From a virus (Duplodnaviria; Heunggongvirae; Uroviricota; Caudoviricetes), in the IMG/VR virus record IMGVR_UViG_2700989487_000010: a stretch of DNA of 31,321 nucleotides; one strand, 5' to 3'. The notes beneath the pieces were generated by a model that was given only the letters and a program-made list of their open reading frames with translations, searched no databases and was not told the DNA's origin. Positions 3,600 through 16,478 of the stretch are shown here, in pieces. Position 1 is the stretch's first letter. Each line of letters begins with the position of its first letter. Position numbers and translations under genes: made by a program.

Positions 3600-4436
3600 A
3601 TGGCTAATGAAAAAAAGACATCCCGCAAAAAGTTTCGCGTGGCTGTTTCCGGTGTAACGGCAGACGGGCGCGAAATCAACGGCGACATGCTGAAAGCTGC
3701 CGCCACCAGTTATAACCCGTCCGTTTATGGTGCACGTGTGAATATTGAGCACATCTTGTCACCACTCCCCGGTAGCGAGTTTTCCGCTATGGGCGATGTT
3801 GTGGGGTTGAGCACCGAAGACATAACCGATGGCCCGCTGGCAGGTCGCACGGCACTGTATGCCGAAATTGAGCCGACCGCTCGCATGATGTCCCTGCTTA
3901 GCGATGGTAAAAAAATTTACTCCAGTATTGAGCTGGAACCACAGTCAACCATCACGGGAGGCCCTTACCTGCGCGGGCTGGCAATGACCGACACCCCCGC
4001 CAGCCTGGGCACGGAACGTCTGGCCTTTGCGGCACAACAACGTATGCAACTGATGACATTCAACTGTCAGCAGGGAGACGTGGTGATGTTTACCGCCGCT
4101 ATGGAGTCAGAACTTATCGAACTCACCGAACAACGTCAGGAAGAAGGCACCCAGTGGTTTAACCGCGTTATGGGGATTATTGGCCGTGGCCGCAAAGCGG
4201 ATGACGCCAGTTTCTCCCGTATTCAGGAAGCGGTGGAAGGTGTCGCAACGTCACAGGCCGACATTATCGACCGTTTTAATGCGCTGGAAACCCGCCATCA
4301 GCAGGACAGCCAGAAAATCACTTTACTGACCACAGAGCTGACAGCACTGAAGGAAAAACTGCGCACGCAGGACGGCGATCCGCAGAACCGGTTCACCGCA
4401 ACGGGCGCAGCCTCCGATCAACTGGCTGACTTCTGA
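3600..4436 (+). CDS. O: Capsid scaffolding protein, P2 gpO family
   Basis: ORF in frame from 3567; ATG at 3600 (MANEKK...) is preceded by a GAGGGG RBS; translation resembles P2 gpO; position upstream of the major capsid gene. Confidence 0.85.
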   Translation: MANEKKTSRKKFRVAVSGVTADGREINGDMLKAAATSYNPSVYGARVNIEHILSPLPGSEFSAMGDVVGLSTEDITDGPLAGRTALYAEIEPTARMMSLLSDGKKIYSSIELEPQSTITGGPYLRGLAMTDTPASLGTERLAFAAQQRMQLMTFNCQQGDVVMFTAAMESELIELTEQRQEEGTQWFNRVMGIIGRGRKADDASFSRIQEAVEGVATSQADIIDRFNALETRHQQDSQKITLLTTELTALKEKLRTQDGDPQNRFTATGAASDQLADF

Positions 4437-4459
4437 TAAGACAAAGGAGCAAATTTTTT

Positions 4460-5512
4460 ATGAATCTGGTGATGTCAGATATTACCCGCAACAAGCTGGG
4501 TTGCTATATGGCGCAGCAGGCGTCGCTTAACAACATCCCGGTATCTGCACTGGTATCGCGATTTACCGTGGAACCCTCGGTGCAGCAGCGTTTTGAAAAC
4601 GCAGTAAAGGAGAGCACTGAATTTACAAAAAAAATTAACGTGTTCGGTGTGACCGACCAGAAAGGCGAAAAAATCCTCCTGGACACCACCGGGCCGATTG
4701 CGCGCACGAATACCAGTTATGACGGCACAAAACGCCGTAACCCGAATAACGTGGTTGATCTGAAAAACCGCAAATATCAGTGCGAACAGGTGAACTACGA
4801 CACGTTTATTTCGTATCCGCAGCTTGATGCCTGGGCGGCACACCCTGATTTTCAGTCACGCGTCAGCACACAGATTGCCCGGCAGGTGGCGCTTGACCGC
4901 ATCATGATCGGTTTCAACGGCACGTCTCACGCAGATGAGTCCAACTTCAGCACCAACAAGCTGCTTCAGGACGTTAACGTGGGATGGCTGGAGCACATCA
5001 GAACCGACGCCAGCGAGCGCGTAATGAATGACGTGACGCTGACCTCCCGCAACATGGACAACACCGTGGCGCACGCGGGTAAGTATGCGAACGCTGATGC
5101 ACTGGTACAGGACGCGCGCTCATCCCTGCTGGATGAATGGCACAAGGAAGCTGACGACCTCGTGGTGATTATGGGGCGCAACCTGTTTAACTCGCTGCGT
5201 CTGCCCGTGCTGAACAGCATCAGCGGCCAGAATCCCAATGCGGAATTACTTGCCGGACAGCTCATCCTGTCATCGCGCGCCATTGGCGGACTGGATGTAT
5301 TCCTTGCGCCGTTCTTCCCGGATTCAACGATGCTGATCACCTCGTTCAACAACCTGTCGATTTACTGGCAGAAAGGAACAATGCGTCGCCTGATGAAAGA
5401 CGAGCCGGAATACAACCGCATCGCCACCTACCAGTCCATCAATGACGCTTATGTCGTTGAAGACTATGGCAAGTGCGCGATGGTCACTGGCCTGAAGTTC
5501 GCCGACAGCTAA
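4460..5512 (+). CDS. N: Major capsid protein, P2 gpN family
   Basis: 350-aa ORF with AGGAG RBS 8 nt upstream; contains FTVEPSV and ENLSIY-type motifs recalled from P2 gpN. Confidence 0.9.
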   Translation: MNLVMSDITRNKLGCYMAQQASLNNIPVSALVSRFTVEPSVQQRFENAVKESTEFTKKINVFGVTDQKGEKILLDTTGPIARTNTSYDGTKRRNPNNVVDLKNRKYQCEQVNYDTFISYPQLDAWAAHPDFQSRVSTQIARQVALDRIMIGFNGTSHADESNFSTNKLLQDVNVGWLEHIRTDASERVMNDVTLTSRNMDNTVAHAGKYANADALVQDARSSLLDEWHKEADDLVVIMGRNLFNSLRLPVLNSISGQNPNAELLAGQLILSSRAIGGLDVFLAPFFPDSTMLITSFNNLSIYWQKGTMRRLMKDEPEYNRIATYQSINDAYVVEDYGKCAMVTGLKFADS

Positions 5513-5522
5513 TCAACTCACG

Positions 5523-5541
5523 GCGGGCATCATGCCCGCCT
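5523..5541 (+). other. GC-rich hairpin in the N-M intergenic gap (ggcgggc / gcccgcc)
   Basis: Inverted repeat directly visible between the capsid gene stop and the M start; no U-tract, so possibly an attenuator or processing structure rather than a terminator. Confidence 0.3.
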
Positions 5542-5557
5542 GTAACGGAGAGAAAAA

Positions 5558-6358
5558 ATGATTACTCCTGCACAGCAACACTGGCAGAACGTGATGGCAC
5601 AGCGCGCAGGCCGGGCGAATGAAGGCGTGGACCACGCCGCGCGTACCGCGCATGAAGAGGTGCTGTATCGTCTGCGTCTGGCACAGGCCCGACTTAAGGG
5701 CGTACAGGCCAGAAGCGCGAAAGCCGCCATCAAAAAAGAGTTGTTGCCGGACTTTTCCGGCTGGATTGAGGGAACGCTGGAGGCTGACGGCGGGCAGCAG
5801 GATGAAGTGATTGCCACGCTGATGGTGTGGGCAATTGACTGCGGCGATCTTCCGCTTGCGCTGCGTATTGGTGCGTATGTGGTCCGTCACAACCTCATCA
5901 TGCCGGATAACTTTGGCCGTACTGCTGCCACGGTACTGACCGAAGAAATCTGCAACCCGGTACTGACGCAGGCCGGGACGGATGCCGACGCGGATTTGTC
6001 CGCCTTTATCGAACCACTGGACACACTTTGGGAAATTGTCGCCAACCAGGATATGCCGGACGAAGTGCGAGCCAAATTATGCAAGGCGTGCGCCTTTGCC
6101 CGCCGTAGCCTGAGCGATGCGGACAGCATGGCCTCATCACTGAAGCTGCTGCGCGAAGCGATGCACCTGAACCCGAACGCAGGTGTGAAACGCGAGATTG
6201 CAACCCTTTCCCGCGCTCTGAAAAAAGCCGATTCCGCAGCCGCACCAGAAGATGCCAGCACACCGCAGGCGCAGAACGAAAGCAGCAAAAGTAAAAAGAC
6301 AACGCGGAAGCCTGCAACACGAAAAACCACCGCGACGCAGAAGGCGAAGCGCGGTTAA
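5558..6358 (+). CDS. M: Terminase small (endonuclease) subunit, P2 gpM family
   Basis: 266-aa ORF; contains MPDEVRAKL and AGVK(R/K)EI motifs recalled from P2 gpM; basic Lys/Arg/Thr-rich C-terminus. Confidence 0.85.
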   Translation: MITPAQQHWQNVMAQRAGRANEGVDHAARTAHEEVLYRLRLAQARLKGVQARSAKAAIKKELLPDFSGWIEGTLEADGGQQDEVIATLMVWAIDCGDLPLALRIGAYVVRHNLIMPDNFGRTAATVLTEEICNPVLTQAGTDADADLSAFIEPLDTLWEIVANQDMPDEVRAKLCKACAFARRSLSDADSMASSLKLLREAMHLNPNAGVKREIATLSRALKKADSAAAPEDASTPQAQNESSKSKKTTRKPATRKTTATQKAKRG

Positions 6359-9506: not shown

Positions 9507-10084
9507 GCGCAGAACTCATGCGACTGCTGAGCAATATCATCCGTACCGGGATCATCTCTGAAGTTGATGAGAAGTCCTGGCGCGTGCGCGTTCGCAGCGG
9601 CGGACTGGAAACAGGCTGGCTGCGCTGGAACACCACGCGCGCGGGAGCCTTCAATGTGTGGCTGCCGCCATCACCCGGCGAACAGGTGGTAATTGCCTGC
9701 ATTGGCGGCAACCCGGAAACCGCCATGATAATTGGCAGCCTGTGGAGTGATGCCAGTCCGGCCCCCGGCAAAAGCCTGAAAGAAATCGTGATCAGCGCGC
9801 CGGACGGCGCGGTGTTCCGCTACGACGCGGACGCAGGCGCGCTGAGCGCCAGCGGCATGAAAACAGCCACCCTGCAGGCATCCGTCAGCGTGACACTGGA
9901 CGCGCCCGTCGTGGAATGCACAGACCTTCTGAGAACAGCGACGCTTGACGTCACAAAAGGGGGAAAGATGAGCGGCAATATCACGCACAGCGGCGGCGAT
10001 TTCACCTCAAACGGCATCACAGTGCATACGCATAAACACGGTGGCGTGAAAGGCGGCAGCGATTCGACAGGAGGCCCGCAGTGA
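9503..10084 (+). CDS. V: Baseplate spike/assembly protein, P2 gpV family
   Basis: 193-aa ORF; synteny R-S-V-W-J-I; Gly-rich C-terminus typical of gpV spike proteins. Confidence 0.85.
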   Translation: MSAELMRLLSNIIRTGIISEVDEKSWRVRVRSGGLETGWLRWNTTRAGAFNVWLPPSPGEQVVIACIGGNPETAMIIGSLWSDASPAPGKSLKEIVISAPDGAVFRYDADAGALSASGMKTATLQASVSVTLDAPVVECTDLLRTATLDVTKGGKMSGNITHSGGDFTSNGITVHTHKHGGVKGGSDSTGGPQ

Positions 10085-10431
10085 CAACCCGCTACACAGG
10101 AATGAATCCGGACGGGACGGGAAACCTGAACGATATGGAGCACCTGAAACAGTCAGTCAGGGACATCCTGACCACCCCGCTGGCAAGCCGGGTTATGCGA
10201 CGGGAATATGGCAGCCTTGTGCCTGATTTGATTGACGAACCCATGAATAACACCACGCGTCTGCAATGCATGAGTGCTGCCGTGATTGCGCTGACACGAT
10301 GGGAACCCCGCATTGCCCTGGATGCCATCGACGTTGTCTGGAAGGCAGGAGGCCGCGCCGGGGTGACGCTGTCGGGCACTGTCATGCAGACCATGCAGAA
10401 TGTTGAATTAACCATCACGCTAAGGGAGTAA
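10081..10431 (+). CDS. W: Baseplate wedge protein, P2 gpW family (GTG start)
   Basis: 116-aa ORF overlapping the V stop; size and position match P2 gpW. Confidence 0.85.
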   Translation: MTTRYTGMNPDGTGNLNDMEHLKQSVRDILTTPLASRVMRREYGSLVPDLIDEPMNNTTRLQCMSAAVIALTRWEPRIALDAIDVVWKAGGRAGVTLSGTVMQTMQNVELTITLRE

Positions 10432-10434
10432 ATC

Positions 10435-11331
10435 ATGCCCGCCGTTGACCTTTCACAGTTACCGGACCCCGCCATCATCGCGGAGCCTGACTTTGAGGCA
10501 ATTCTGGCTGACACAAAGGCCATGATGATTGCGGCTTATCCCGCCGAACAGCGTGAAGCCGTCTCCGCCGCGCTGGAGCTGGAATCGGAACCCCTGAACG
10601 TTATCGCCCAGACAACAGCGTTTCGTGAAATGCTGTTACGCCAGCGGGTCAATGAGGGTGCACGCGCCTGCATGTTAAGCCACAGCGCCGGGACAGACCT
10701 GGACAACCTCGCGGGCAATATGAACACAAAGCGCCTGGTTATCACTCCGGCAACGGATACCACCGACGCGGTGATGGAAAGCGACGCCTCGCTGAGACTG
10801 CGGGCGCAACGGGCGTACGACGGCCTGAGTGTTGCTGGCCCGTCAGGTGCATACTAGTATTTTGCCCGCAGCGCCAGCGGTCTGGTGCGTGATGCGCGGG
10901 CTATCAGTCCGTCTCCGGCAAATGTGACGGTTTCCATCCTGTCCACTGAAGGCGACGGCACGGCAACGGAGGCGTTGCTTAATACCGTTCGCGCCGTTCT
11001 GAATGCAGAGGATACCCGCCCGGTGGCCGACCGCCTGACCGTACAGAGTGCCAGAATCGTGACATGGCGGCTGAATGCAAAACTGTACTTTTACCCCGGC
11101 CCGGAATCCGAACCTATTCTGGCCGCGGCGGAATCGTCGTTCAGGAAGTGGCTGGCTGAGCAGGGGCTTATCGGTCAGGACGTGGCGTTATCCGCCATTG
11201 CTGCCGCACTGCATGTGCACGGTGTGCAACGCGTGGAGATAATCGAACCCACACAGAATATGGCCATCAGCGACATACAGGCGGCGCGCTGTGAGTCGTT
11301 CACCATCAGCGAAGGTGGGCGCAATGAGTAA
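10435..11331 (+). pseudogene. J: Baseplate protein J (P2 gpJ family) interrupted by a single in-frame TAG at 10855-10857
   Basis: ORFs 10435..10857 and 10885..11331 are in the same frame (offset 450 nt); the nine intervening codons are open; combined length of about 298 codons is that expected for gpJ. The TAG lies inside ACTAGT. Confidence 0.7.
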
Positions 11332-11854
11332 TTCGCTGTTACCACCATCAGCCAGCAATTTCATGCGTTGCGCCGAAGCTGTCGGAGCGCGCACTACAAA
11401 CATCCCGGTAGACCTCAACACGCTGTGGTCACCGGATACCTGCCCGGTGCATCTGCTGCCTTATCTCGCCTGGGCATTTTCCGTTGACCGCTGGGATCGC
11501 AACTGGCCGGAAGAGACAAAGCGACAGGTTATTCGTGATGCATGGCTGATACACCGACACAAAGGGACCATCAGCGCACTGCGCCGGGCCATTGAGCCGC
11601 TGGGATACCTCATTCGCGTGTCTGAGTGGTGGGAGTTCGGCGGAGAACCGGGAACATTTACCGTTGAAGTCGGCACGCTGGACAGTGGCGTGACGGAGGA
11701 AATGTATCTGGAAATGGAGCGGTTGATTGCTGATGCCCGCCCGGTCAGCCGCCACATGACAGGGCTGAATATCATTCAGGAAATTCCGGGGGATATTTTC
11801 GCAGCGGCGGCAACTTATGACGGTGAAGTTATTACCATTTACCCAGGCGATTAA
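11324..11854 (+). CDS. I: Baseplate protein, P2 gpI family
   Basis: ATG at 11324 overlaps the J stop; about 176 aa; precedes the tail fibre gene as in P2. Confidence 0.8.
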   Translation: MSNSLLPPSASNFMRCAEAVGARTTNIPVDLNTLWSPDTCPVHLLPYLAWAFSVDRWDRNWPEETKRQVIRDAWLIHRHKGTISALRRAIEPLGYLIRVSEWWEFGGEPGTFTVEVGTLDSGVTEEMYLEMERLIADARPVSRHMTGLNIIQEIPGDIFAAAATYDGEVITIYPGD

Positions 11855-11856
11855 GC

Positions 11857-14007
11857 ATGAGTACCACAACACGAAAATTTAAAACCGTTATCACCGATAC
11901 GGGTGCAAAAAAATTAGCTCAGGCAGCCGCGCCAGATGGTAAGCCTGTCCGCCTGACTCATATGGCCGTGGGCGACGGTGGCGGCGCGTTGCCCACACCA
12001 GACAGTAAGCAGACCCGTCTGGTGCATGAGGTGTGGCGACACACTGTTAATCGCGTCATCCTGGACGCAACACATCAGAACCGCATTATTGCGGAGCTGG
12101 TTATTCCTCCTGAAACGGGCGGATTCTGGATCCGGGAAATTGGTGTATTTGATGAGCACGGCGATTTAATCGCGGTGGGCAATACTGCCGAAAGTTACAA
12201 ACCAACCGTTGCCGAAGGGTCCGGACGTGCACAAACATTTCGCACTATTCTGACCGTATCCAGCACTGCCACCGTGGCGCTTACCGTGGATAACACCATG
12301 GTGATGGCCACAGTGGATTACGTGGATGACAAACTGAAAGAGCATGAACAGTCACGACGTCACCCGGACGCCTCGCTGACCGCAAAAGGCTTTGTTCAAC
12401 TCAGTAGCGCCACTAACAGCGTGTCTGAAACGCAGGCTGCAACGCCGAAAGCGGTTAAGGCCGCGTATGATCTTGCTAACGGTAAATATACTGCGCAGGA
12501 TGCCAGCACGACGCGAAAAGGCCTTGTCCAGCTCAGTAGCGCCACCAACAGCACGTCTGAAACGCAGGCTGCAACGCCGAAAGCAGTAAAGGCCGCGTAT
12601 GATCTTGCTAACGCAAAATATACCGCTCAGGACGCCACGACAGCACAAAAAGGGATTGTCCAGCTCAGTAGTGCCACCAACAGCACGTCTGAAACATTGG
12701 CCGCGACATCGAAAGCGGTTAAGGCGGTAATGGATGAAACAAATAAGAAAGCCCCATTAAACAGCCCGGCGCTGACCGGAACGCCAACAACACCAACTGC
12801 GCGACAGGGAACGAATAATACCCAAATCGCAAGCACGGCTTTCGTTATGGCTGCGATTGCCGCCCTTGTAGATTCGTCACCTGATGCACTGAACACGCTG
12901 AACGAGCTGGCTGCGGCGTTGGGCAACGACCCGAATTTTGCGACCACCATGACTAACGCGCTTGCGGGTAAGCAACCGAAAGATGCCACCCTGACGGCGC
13001 TGGCCGGGCTTGCTACTGCGGCAGACAGGTTTCCGTATTTTACGGGGAATGATGTCGCCAGCCTGGCAACTCTGACAAAAGTCGGGCGGGATATTCTTGC
13101 GAAATCGACCGTTGCCGCCGTTATCGAATACCTCGGTTTACAGGAAACGGTAAACAGGGCTGGTAACGCCGTGCAAAAAAATGGCGATACCTTGTCCGGT
13201 GGGCTTACTTTTGAAAATGACTCAATCCTTGCCTGGATTCGAAATACTGACTGGGCGAAGATTGGATTTAAAAATGATGCTGATGGTGACACTGATTCAT
13301 ACATGTGGTTTGAAACAGGCGACAACGGCAATGAATATTTCAAATGGAGAAGCCGCCAGAGCACCACAACAAAAGACCTGATGACGCTGAAATGGGATGC
13401 ACTAAATATTCTGGTAAATGCCGTCATTAATGGCAGTCTTGGAGTTGGTACGACGAATGCGTTAGGTGGTAGCTCTATTGTTCTTGGTGATAATGACACC
13501 GGATTCAAACAGAATGGTGATGGTATTCTGGATGTTTACGCTAATAGTCAGCGAGTATTCCGCTTTCAGAATGGAGTTGCTATTGCTTTTAAAAACATTC
13601 AGGCAGGTGATAGTAAAAAGTTCTCGCTATCCAGCTCCAACACCTCCACAAAGAATGCAACGTTTAATTTATGGGGTGCTTCAACCCGTCCAGTAGTTGC
13701 AGAGTTAGGCGATGAGGCAGGATGGCATTTCTATAGCCAGCGAAATACAGATAACTCGGTAATATTTTCTGTTAACGGTCAGATACAGCCCAGCAACTGG
13801 GGGAATTTTGATTCACGCTATGTAAAAGATGTTCGCCTGGGTACGCGTGTTGTTCAATTGATGGCGCGTGGTGGTCGTTATGAAAAAGCCGGACACGCAA
13901 TTACCGGATTAAGAATCATTGGTGAAGTAGATGGCGATGATGAAGCCATCTTCAGACCAATACAAAAATACATCAATGGCACATGGTATAACGTCGCACA
14001 GGTGTAA
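11857..14007 (+). CDS. H: Tail fibre protein, P2 gpH family (Hc constant part plus currently expressed Hv variable part)
   Basis: 716-aa ORF; N-terminal region P2 H-like; three tandem tail-fibre repeat units; C-terminus ...INGTWYNVAQV; a gix-like site lies inside the gene at 13121-13146. Confidence 0.9.
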   Translation: MSTTTRKFKTVITDTGAKKLAQAAAPDGKPVRLTHMAVGDGGGALPTPDSKQTRLVHEVWRHTVNRVILDATHQNRIIAELVIPPETGGFWIREIGVFDEHGDLIAVGNTAESYKPTVAEGSGRAQTFRTILTVSSTATVALTVDNTMVMATVDYVDDKLKEHEQSRRHPDASLTAKGFVQLSSATNSVSETQAATPKAVKAAYDLANGKYTAQDASTTRKGLVQLSSATNSTSETQAATPKAVKAAYDLANAKYTAQDATTAQKGIVQLSSATNSTSETLAATSKAVKAVMDETNKKAPLNSPALTGTPTTPTARQGTNNTQIASTAFVMAAIAALVDSSPDALNTLNELAAALGNDPNFATTMTNALAGKQPKDATLTALAGLATAADRFPYFTGNDVASLATLTKVGRDILAKSTVAAVIEYLGLQETVNRAGNAVQKNGDTLSGGLTFENDSILAWIRNTDWAKIGFKNDADGDTDSYMWFETGDNGNEYFKWRSRQSTTTKDLMTLKWDALNILVNAVINGSLGVGTTNALGGSSIVLGDNDTGFKQNGDGILDVYANSQRVFRFQNGVAIAFKNIQAGDSKKFSLSSSNTSTKNATFNLWGASTRPVVAELGDEAGWHFYSQRNTDNSVIFSVNGQIQPSNWGNFDSRYVKDVRLGTRVVQLMARGGRYEKAGHAITGLRIIGEVDGDDEAIFRPIQKYINGTWYNVAQV
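12385..12740 (+). repeat. Three tandem ~132-bp direct repeats inside H encoding a repeated ~44-aa tail-fibre motif (LSSATNS.SETQAATPKAVKAAYDLAN)
   Basis: Repeat units begin at 12385, 12517 and 12649 (period 132 nt, frame-preserving); the third copy diverges in its second half. Confidence 0.85.
13121..13146. repeat. gix/hix-like invertase crossover site (left), embedded in H
   Basis: ttatcgaatacctcggtttacaggaa is an inverted partner of the site at 15799-15824, sharing the core acctcggtttac, and resembles the Gin gix consensus recalled as TTCCTGTAAACCGAGGTTTTGGATAA. Confidence 0.7.
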
Positions 14008-14566: not shown

Positions 14567-15100
14567 TCATTCTGGTTGTTCGGGAAACGTTACTGGCAGG
14601 CTGGAGGTGTCTGTAGATTCGACTTTCTGCGCATAGAGCATCCACTCGGTTAATTTTTGTTTATTCTCGTCGGAAATGATGCCCAGCCGTAGCTGTGAGT
14701 CCCATAGCTGGGTTTTATCCCTGACAAGTTGCAACAGGCTTTGCTTTTCATTTTCCGCTTGTTGCCTCTGCTCTTCCTCGGTATAAGTTCGCTTTATCAC
14801 TACGCCATCTTTGAACAACCATTTCCCCGAAATATCAGCCCGGCGATTTGCTGTAATATCAGGTAATTCAACGACGCTTGCGCCTTCCGGATTAATTGCT
14901 GAAACATCCTTTTCAATACAAATAATAACGCCGTTATGGTCATAGACCATTTTCAACGTATCTGGCTGGAAATTCTTTTGTTCCTCATACCAGTTTTTTC
15001 CATCATCTGAATAAAGCCATTTGATGTTAAATTGCTTTGTTAGCTGGTATTGCTCTTTTGTTTTAGGGTTGCCAGCAGTAATGTTTTTTAAGTGCATCAT
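14567..15100 (-). CDS. Alternate tail fibre assembly chaperone (G')
   Basis: 177-aa minus-strand ORF beginning [30 protein letters not shown]..., a clear paralogue of G. Confidence 0.8.
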   Translation of the reverse strand: MMHLKNITAGNPKTKEQYQLTKQFNIKWLYSDDGKNWYEEQKNFQPDTLKMVYDHNGVIICIEKDVSAINPEGASVVELPDITANRRADISGKWLFKDGVVIKRTYTEEEQRQQAENEKQSLLQLVRDKTQLWDSQLRLGIISDENKQKLTEWMLYAQKVESTDTSSLPVTFPEQPE

Positions 15101-15102
15101 CG

Positions 15103-15811
15103 TTAAATACTCCCCGCGTTATACCACGTCCCATTAATGCAATACTGAATTGGCCTTGCCTGTGTTGTATCAATTAATTCATCACGGTTTCCGTTAACTG
15201 AACCCGTAACGACATAACCTGACCTGTCAGACCAGCCGGGACCATTCCATGTCTGAACAGATGACAGACCGCCAAGGCGAATACCTGTAATAAACATTGA
15301 GTTACATTCTGCCCGCGTATATGCACCAACATCTCCCGCTGAAGGTTTTCGTGTCGTGGTATAGAAATCTGACCAACCTAATTCAAACCCATAACCATCA
15401 CGAGCCGACCTGTAGGAAATGCCACCATTTTTATAATTCACACGGAATTGTACGGCAGGACAGCTACCAGCATTTATATTAAAGTGAAGAATTAATGCAG
15501 ATGCACCACCAATCAGGGCGTTATATGCACCACTATCCCAATTCCATCCAACGGATGTATCACCATTAACAGTATTACCTGTTTGTCGGAGTGCAAATGC
15601 ATTGACATTTTTGGCACTAATTGAAATATCGCTAGAACCATCAAAACCAACTCCAGCAATTTTTCGTGCTGTTTTCAGCTTTGTTGCAGTAGCGGCATTG
15701 CCGGACAGTTCCCCAGAAAGGCCACCGCTGAATGTTTGTCGATTGGTCCAGGTATTCGCTGTACTGAGTAACGGTATTTTCTCCCCGCTTGTGCCGAGTT
15801 CTCGTAAACCG
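15103..15811 (-). CDS. Alternate tail fibre variable C-terminal segment (H'v); promoterless and start-less, expressed only after inversion as an Hc-H'v fusion
   Basis: The minus-strand frame is open from the right gix site down to the stop at 15103; when joined at the gix centre it continues the Hc frame without a stop; C-terminus ...INGTWYNAGSI parallels the H C-terminus. Confidence 0.75.
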
Positions 15812-15824
15812 AGGTTTTAAATAA
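15799..15824. repeat. gix/hix-like invertase crossover site (right), overlapping the invertase promoter region
   Basis: ttctcgtaaaccgaggttttaaataa, inverted relative to the site at 13121-13146, about 55 nt upstream of the invertase start. Confidence 0.7.
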
Positions 15825-15878
15825 TGGCCGTTTCTGGCCTGCATGGCATGATTTGCGCTTTTGGACGGGAGATTCCGT

Positions 15879-16478
15879 GTGCTGATTGGCTATGTAAGGG
15901 TATCAACAAATGACCAGAATACAGACCTGCAACGAAACGCTCTTGTTTGTGCAGGATGTGAACAAATATTTGAAGATAAATTAAGCGGGACAAAGACAGA
16001 CCGACCGGGATTAAAACGCGCTTTAAAGCGCCTTCAAAAAGGTGACACGCTGGTTGTCTGGAAACTGGATCGCCTCGGGCGAAGCATGAAACATCTGATT
16101 TCTCTCGTCGGGGAACTACGGGAGCGAGGGATTAATTTTCGCAGTCTGACCGACAGCATAGACACATCTTCTCCAATGGGGCGTTTTTTCTTCCACGTGA
16201 TGGGTGCCCTGGCTGAAATGGAACGTGAATTAATTGTTGAACGTACACTGGCCGGGCTGGCGGCAGCGCGCGCAAGGGGGCGCACAGGCGGACGTCGACC
16301 GAAGCTGACAAAAGAACAGCATGAGCAAATAGCAAGGCTAATCAAAAACGGGCACGACAGAAAACAACTGGCAATAATTTACGGCATTGGCACATCGACG
16401 ATTTATCGTTATCACCCTGTAGGCGATATACAGACTGAAGAAACAACCGGGCAGACTCAGGAAAATGAAAACCGCTAA
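15879..16478 (+). CDS. Serine DNA invertase, Gin/Pin/Cin/Hin family
   Basis: Translation from GTG 15879 begins (M)LIGYVRVSTNDQNTDLQRNAL..., essentially the Gin N-terminus with the catalytic Ser, plus a C-terminal helix-turn-helix; GGGAGA RBS 7 nt upstream. The ORF is also open from TTG 15861. Confidence 0.88.
   Translation: MLIGYVRVSTNDQNTDLQRNALVCAGCEQIFEDKLSGTKTDRPGLKRALKRLQKGDTLVVWKLDRLGRSMKHLISLVGELRERGINFRSLTDSIDTSSPMGRFFFHVMGALAEMERELIVERTLAGLAAARARGRTGGRRPKLTKEQHEQIARLIKNGHDRKQLAIIYGIGTSTIYRYHPVGDIQTEETTGQTQENENR

Follow-up and report, generated by a model that had tools for sequence, protein, structure and literature searches.

Gene J in a P88-like prophage

The DNA analysed here (31,321 nucleotides, referred to below as the window) makes up the entire contig JXVW01000048.1 from assembly GCA_000948465.1, and it carries the late region of a P88-like prophage (genus Xuanwuvirus, family Peduoviridae) of E. 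coli. The late region starts with the portal and terminase genes on the minus strand. Next in order are O, N, M, L, X, the holin, the endolysin, LysB, R, S, V, W, J, I, H and G, followed by an invertible tail-fibre segment with its invertase. Genes U, T, E, FII and FI on the minus strand and then D lead to a few cargo genes, beyond which lie E. coli flk, yfcJ, fabB and mnmC. The baseplate genes have the conserved order V-W-J-I-H (Table 1), and J is found between the gp25-like gene W and gene I in the contractile-tail cluster.

Gene J is a single reading frame of 299 codons that contains one internal stop in addition to its natural terminal TAA. The internal stop is an amber codon, and it divides the gene into two open segments that share a common frame. 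Both segments align with P88 gpJ in a colinear fashion over residues 1-298, with 98% identity, no gaps and exactly one stop in the alignment. The earlier note on this DNA had described two halves of gpJ that are separated by this TAG, with neither a frameshift nor an insertion between them. Conceptual translation, the list of open reading frames and the alignment to P88 gpJ all agree with that description.

The identity of the interrupted gene is well defined. Its product matches the Pfam family Baseplate_J (PF04865) over residues 114-258 (E 1.4e-19; 70.9 bits, compared with a cut-off of 21.1), and the fragments called by annotation programs match Baseplate_J_N and Baseplate_J_C. It also aligns over its full length with PA0618 (Tri1, PDB 6u5b; E 7e-75), where query residues 4-297 correspond to chain residues 3-294. 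These two matches and the conserved gene order rule out a chance open frame. Members of this family that function are expected to have an uninterrupted full-length frame, and here the frame is broken at codon 141. By its sequence, the J locus is a pseudogene of the Baseplate J/gpJ family.

The P2 baseplate consists of six wedges, each of which is a heterotrimer of two gpJ subunits and one gpI (bioRxiv 10.64898/2026.09.14.750843). This architecture is consistent with the view, stated in the earlier note, that gpJ is an essential protein. The counterparts of gpJ in other contractile systems are T4 gp6 and the T6SS protein TssF (PMC4604203).

Table 1. Positions of gene J, its neighbours, the tail-fibre inversion system and the cargo genes (numbering of the window unless another record is named)
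Feature	Position	Strand	Match or remark
Gene V	9503-10084		
Gene W, gp25-like sheath initiator	10081-10431	+	100% identity to P88 W; intact upstream neighbour of J
Gene J, baseplate wedge/triplex (P2 gpJ / T4 gp6 / pyocin PA0618 family)	10435-11331	+	P88 gpJ, PA0618 and Pfam matches; frame broken once
Predicted truncated J product, 140 aa	10435-10857	+	ORF list; Pfam Baseplate_J_N; NCBI SPX28708.1; N-terminal part of Baseplate_J only
Premature amber TAG, codon 141	10855-10857	+	From GAG (Glu) via G>T at 10855; +4 base T
Orphaned J C-terminal part	10885-11331	+	ORF list; gene callers start at in-frame GTG; residues 205-297 resemble PA0618 C-domain (5ces)
Gene I, triplex partner of gpJ	11324-11854	+	Match to P88 protein; intact; start overlaps J end
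Gene H	11857-14007		
gix/cix-like inverted repeats bounding the invertible tail-fibre segment	13117-13146 and 15799-15828		
Alternative tail-fibre assembly gene	14567-15100	-	
Promoterless alternative H C-terminal exon	about 15103-15798	-	
Hin/Gin-type invertase	15879-16478		Resolvase + HTH_7
Cargo slot between gene D and host flk	23482-26238		
DUF2971 gene	23482-24318	-	AT-rich (GC 0.33)
Ogr-like zinc-finger ORF	24463-24723		
hok-like ORF	24915-25055		
Small Com-like CxxC...CxxC ORF	25296-25502		Overlaps methyltransferase start
N6/N4 DNA methyltransferase	25447-26238		
Dam-like methylase (MethyltransfD12, 281 aa) and AAA_15/AAA_21 ATPase (565 aa)	3798-6358 of the locus in GCA_900450275.1		Just left of window position 1

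Ancestral codon and distribution of the stop

The earlier note had proposed that gpJ homologues be aligned to find the ancestral codon. Codon 141 is GAG (Glu) in all five relatives that were aligned, which are P88, Shae_phiSM and three E. coli prophages. In an alignment of 126 nucleotides around this codon, the other 125 are alike except for a single A/G polymorphism at 10809 in two of the relatives. Because all five relatives carry GAG and the flanks are otherwise alike, the lesion can be traced to one G>T transversion at position 10855.

Sequence collections were searched for further copies of the stop. A 61-nucleotide query centred on the TAG was run on 5426 complete E. coli genomes, and the region was found in 892 of them. 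None of these 892 genomes has an identical copy and no record matches at 99% or above. The 13 matching phage records likewise contain no identical copy. An exact 31-mer carrying the TAG has no match in IMG/VR, in GTDB species representatives or in JGI metagenome contigs, while its GAG version has 104 matches in IMG/VR. Codon 141 is also GAG in every one of the 92 IMG/VR copies of J that are exactly 897 nucleotides long. The TAG is therefore derived and rare. Related phages that share it in a readthrough context, which the earlier note had named as grounds for abandoning its reading, are absent from the five aligned relatives, the 892 genomes, the 13 phage records and IMG/VR.

The same stop is present in closely related assemblies. 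Sibling read sets were found among Logan assemblies by exact look-up of the 140-residue truncated product, which occurs in the assembly of ERR294549 (on a 30-kb contig seen in four samples) and in that of SRR1783854. An NCBI protein, SPX28708.1, is this same 140-residue product and comes from a separate submission. Two further sibling assemblies, GCA_900450275.1 (321-kb contig UASG01000007.1) and GCA_012807915.1, were reached via the rare scaffold protein O, and both have TAG at the same codon of J. In all, TAG carriers besides the window come from four other records.

The earlier note had listed a sequencing error as a possibility, and this recurrence bears on it. If sequencing or assembly had gone wrong here, the true genome would have GAG. 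In favour of an error, only one base is altered, the contig is a short-read draft, and the draft departs from its siblings at positions 518 and 524 and thus is not error-free. An error would not be expected to recur when the same isolate or a sister isolate is sequenced again, but the TAG is seen again in two assemblies and two Logan read sets, and its truncated product was deposited in a separate submission. An artefact at this codon can be given virtually no credence.

Outside the tail-fibre repeat region, 518 and 524 are the only positions at which the siblings differ from the window. They are T and C in the window but G and G in ERR294549, GCA_900450275.1 and GCA_012807915.1. Both differences fall in a non-coding stretch close to the end of the contig and may be errors in this draft. 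Because the sequences are otherwise almost identical, the TAG carriers represent one clone. They may even be one strain that was sequenced several times or is held in different collections, such that the 'lineage' carrying the stop could be a single strain.

The remainder of the late region is in good order. All 28 of the other P88 late proteins that match the window are full length and have no stops, so that J is the sole broken one. The sibling assembly adds 6.4 kb beyond the left end of the window, where a derepression protein, gpA (941 aa), a Dam-like methylase and an AAA_15/AAA_21 ATPase have the same lengths as in relatives. The tail-fibre segment has the opposite orientation in GCA_900450275.1, and because it has flipped between the window and this assembly the invertase is active in the clone. 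The intact state of the other late proteins and this inversion between sibling assemblies both suggest that the lesion in J is recent.

The earlier note had asked whether the accessory genes sit in a live or a decaying prophage, and the answer falls between these alternatives. Decay has begun with the stop in J. Since the late region is otherwise intact, however, the prophage is at an early step of this process rather than an old wreck. There may be other defects, or none, in the early region (int, repressor), which lies outside the window and is partly seen in the sibling.

Gene H and the cargo genes show some variation of their own. Positions 12384-12779 of H are made up of three tandem units of 132 nucleotides (44 amino acids), with 100, 86 and 61% identity to the first unit. 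The H product has 705 residues in GCA_900450275.1 and 716 in the window, and the alignment is offset by about 132 nucleotides at the repeats. This pattern suggests that the sibling has one repeat unit fewer or that the assemblies differ. The Dam-like methylase and ATPase genes of the same sibling are located between replication gene A and the portal gene, in what is a variable cargo slot. In relatives, this slot contains Peptidase_S8 with an AAA protein, Ead/Ea22, ParM/StbA or DUF4760.

Lesions of J are not confined to this clone. There are 2673 possible single-base changes in the gene, and 75 of them (about 2.8%) create a stop. An identical 148-residue C-terminal product is called on other E. 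coli contigs whose J genes have independent lesions, and codon 141 is GAG in all of these. The independent lesions include frameshifts at two loci, a nonsense mutation at codon 119 at another and large deletions at two more. The deletions in this set (L021-L028) fuse the C-terminal part of J to early genes. Frameshifts are also found in 5 of 98 full-length IMG/VR copies of J. A frameshift has likewise turned gene I into a pseudogene in EC21Z-147, the closest complete genome (positions 12890-13419 of locus L001). Single inactivating lesions of tail genes are routine in prophages of this type.

The G>T change also alters the local sequence in other ways. It completes a perfect 10-bp palindrome, ATACTAGTAT, at 10851-10860 and creates the sole SpeI site (ACTAGT) in the window. 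CTAG tetranucleotides occur three times in the window, including the new one, compared to about 121 expected from base composition. The palindrome and the restriction site are probably a coincidence. Quasi-palindrome (template-switch) mutagenesis was considered as an origin of the change, but the mutated base sits in the middle of ATACTAGTAT and the arms are just 4-5 bp long, which is unconvincing. An engineered amber codon with a diagnostic SpeI site is likewise unsupported, as this is a single-base change found in independently deposited assemblies.

Possible ways around the stop

A stop codon in an essential gene need not be fatal if some full-length protein is made, and the earlier note had offered readthrough or suppression as one explanation for this TAG. 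Enough full-length gpJ for a viable phage with a smaller burst might come from near-cognate readthrough or from a host tRNA that suppresses amber codons. Leakiness is known among classical amber mutants. Residue 141 aligns with Ile in PA0618 and, by this comparison, does not appear to be conserved. Any amino acid inserted there would probably be tolerated, and rare readthrough gpJ would probably work. E. coli misreads UAG at a low rate, but a U at the +4 position, as is present here, lowers both readthrough and suppression and is the context least favourable to either, favouring strong termination (PMC5289835). The RNA after the stop (10846-10965, 120 nucleotides) folds no better than shuffled sequences (z 0.08), which provides no sign of a stimulatory structure. 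The window and the neighbouring prophage DNA of three sibling loci contain no tRNA gene. Because each baseplate needs 12 gpJ subunits, readthrough at the per-cent level would be expected to cut the yield steeply. The TAG occurs in no relative examined and thus is not a selected feature. A programmed event would call for a stop that is conserved among relatives and for a leaky context or a stimulatory structure, and nothing in these sequences points to one. Leakage or suppression sufficient for viability is accordingly very unlikely, and the readthrough suggested in the earlier note finds no support.

Function could also be rescued if the protein were made in two pieces. In this case, the fragment of residues 1-140 would form a working wedge together with a C-terminal fragment (residues 151-298) reinitiated at the GTG at 10885. 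Reinitiation after a nonsense codon is known in E. coli, for example in the lacI restarts. The GTG is the first in-frame start and lies 27 nucleotides past the stop, and the C-domain of PA0618 folds alone (5ces). However, the 20 nucleotides that precede the GTG, CCCGCAGCGCCAGCGGTCTG, have no Shine-Dalgarno-like sequence. Ten residues of a conserved domain would be lost, and the break would fall inside the Baseplate_J core defined by the Pfam match. Relatives have no such split form, and the other split calls reflect different, independent lesions. A working split gpJ is therefore exceedingly improbable. Because no recognisable Shine-Dalgarno sequence lies upstream, the C-terminal open reading frame is probably untranslated or subject to weak reinitiation only. 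Bypass of the TAG by a +1 or -1 frameshift can be dismissed, since both other frames run into stops, after 23 and 11 codons.

For the amber allele not to be dead, low-level UAG misreading, or reinitiation that gives a split gpJ, would have to yield at least a few infectious particles, and the likelihood of this is slight indeed. If it were so, the stop would by accident limit how many virions are made, and the lysogen would retain its cargo genes.

A different kind of rescue leaves the mutation null. A second P2- or P88-like prophage in the same genome could supply gpJ in trans, and particles that contain the TAG genome would still form. Complete E. coli genomes that have the gene number 1015 and contain it at 1140 places, with up to three copies per genome, and about one genome in nine has more than one copy of J. 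The median is nevertheless one copy per genome, and the two phages would also have to be compatible and be induced together. Supply in trans is unlikely for these reasons.

Predicted consequences and relation to known systems

The stop in J is very likely a genuine, recent and lineage-private nonsense mutation in a P88-like E. coli prophage, with a predicted loss of full-length gpJ and of tails. The earlier note had listed a recent inactivating mutation among its explanations, and the TAG in sibling records, the GAG in all relatives and the intact state of the other late genes favour this one. The sequences directly show the stop, its ancestral codon, the fact that it is real, its confinement to one clone and the intact state of the other late genes. 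The loss of function and the tail-less phenotype are what we infer from these observations.

The proposed mechanism is simple. A single G>T change at 10855 converted Glu141 (GAG) to an amber codon at which release factor 1 would end translation. The product would be a 140-residue N-terminal fragment that lacks the middle and C-terminal parts of gpJ. Such a fragment has no counterpart of PA0618 residues ~134-295, including the separately solved C-domain (5ces; query residues 205-297), and the break falls within the conserved Baseplate_J core. The wedge of two gpJ and one gpI could not form, and neither a baseplate nor a tail would be built. Phage from this clone is thus probably unable to make tails, as far as can be judged from sequence. 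Heads, DNA packaging and lysis functions should be unaffected by the stop. Amber mutants in P2 tail genes provide an analogy for the predicted phenotype, in which lysis would release filled heads without tails. Upon induction, the prophage would produce at most DNA-filled heads and cell lysis, and no infectious particles would be released. Exceptions might arise in a host with a suppressor tRNA, or where a second related prophage gives gpJ in trans.

This stop matters mainly for annotation and for the question of whether the cargo genes remain mobilisable. Several databases list two 'baseplate' genes of 140 and 148 amino acids here, and J should be annotated instead as a pseudogene. A label of 'probably defective in tail assembly' would suit the prophage on this contig. 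In this clone, particles made by the phage itself probably no longer transfer the cargo, which comprises the DUF2971 gene and the right-end methyltransferase as well as the Dam-like methylase and AAA ATPase of the sibling. A further lesson is that exact look-up of a truncated product allows other public read sets to be used to test a premature stop found in a draft assembly.

The closest known protein is gpJ of phage P88 (KP063541, AIZ95145.1; Xuanwuvirus, Peduoviridae), which resembles the J product in length (298 residues), in sequence and in the order of the surrounding genes. P88 has GAG at codon 141 where the gene studied here has TAG, and the latter therefore cannot encode the full-length protein. 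Tri1 (PA0618), from the baseplate of the P. aeruginosa R-type pyocin (PDB 6u5b/6u5k and 5ces), is a full-length homologue, but it is a tailocin protein rather than a phage protein, and its counterpart of residue 141 is Ile. In comparison to Tri1, the J frame is interrupted upstream of the part that matches the C-domain.

The stop in J is an ordinary clone-private pseudogenisation, and both the gene and the type of prophage are known. Like the pseudogenes found in E. coli prophages that are cryptic or in decay, it is one inactivating change in a structural gene, is confined to one clone and has neighbours that are intact. Nothing essential differs from these pseudogenes, although here there is one visible lesion and decay has barely begun. 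P2 genetics provides a second parallel in its amber (sus) mutants of tail genes, which are conditional on a suppressor host. The J allele is like these laboratory mutants in having an amber codon in an essential tail gene. Unlike them, it occurs in natural or collection E. coli assemblies and in a prophage of the P88 type.
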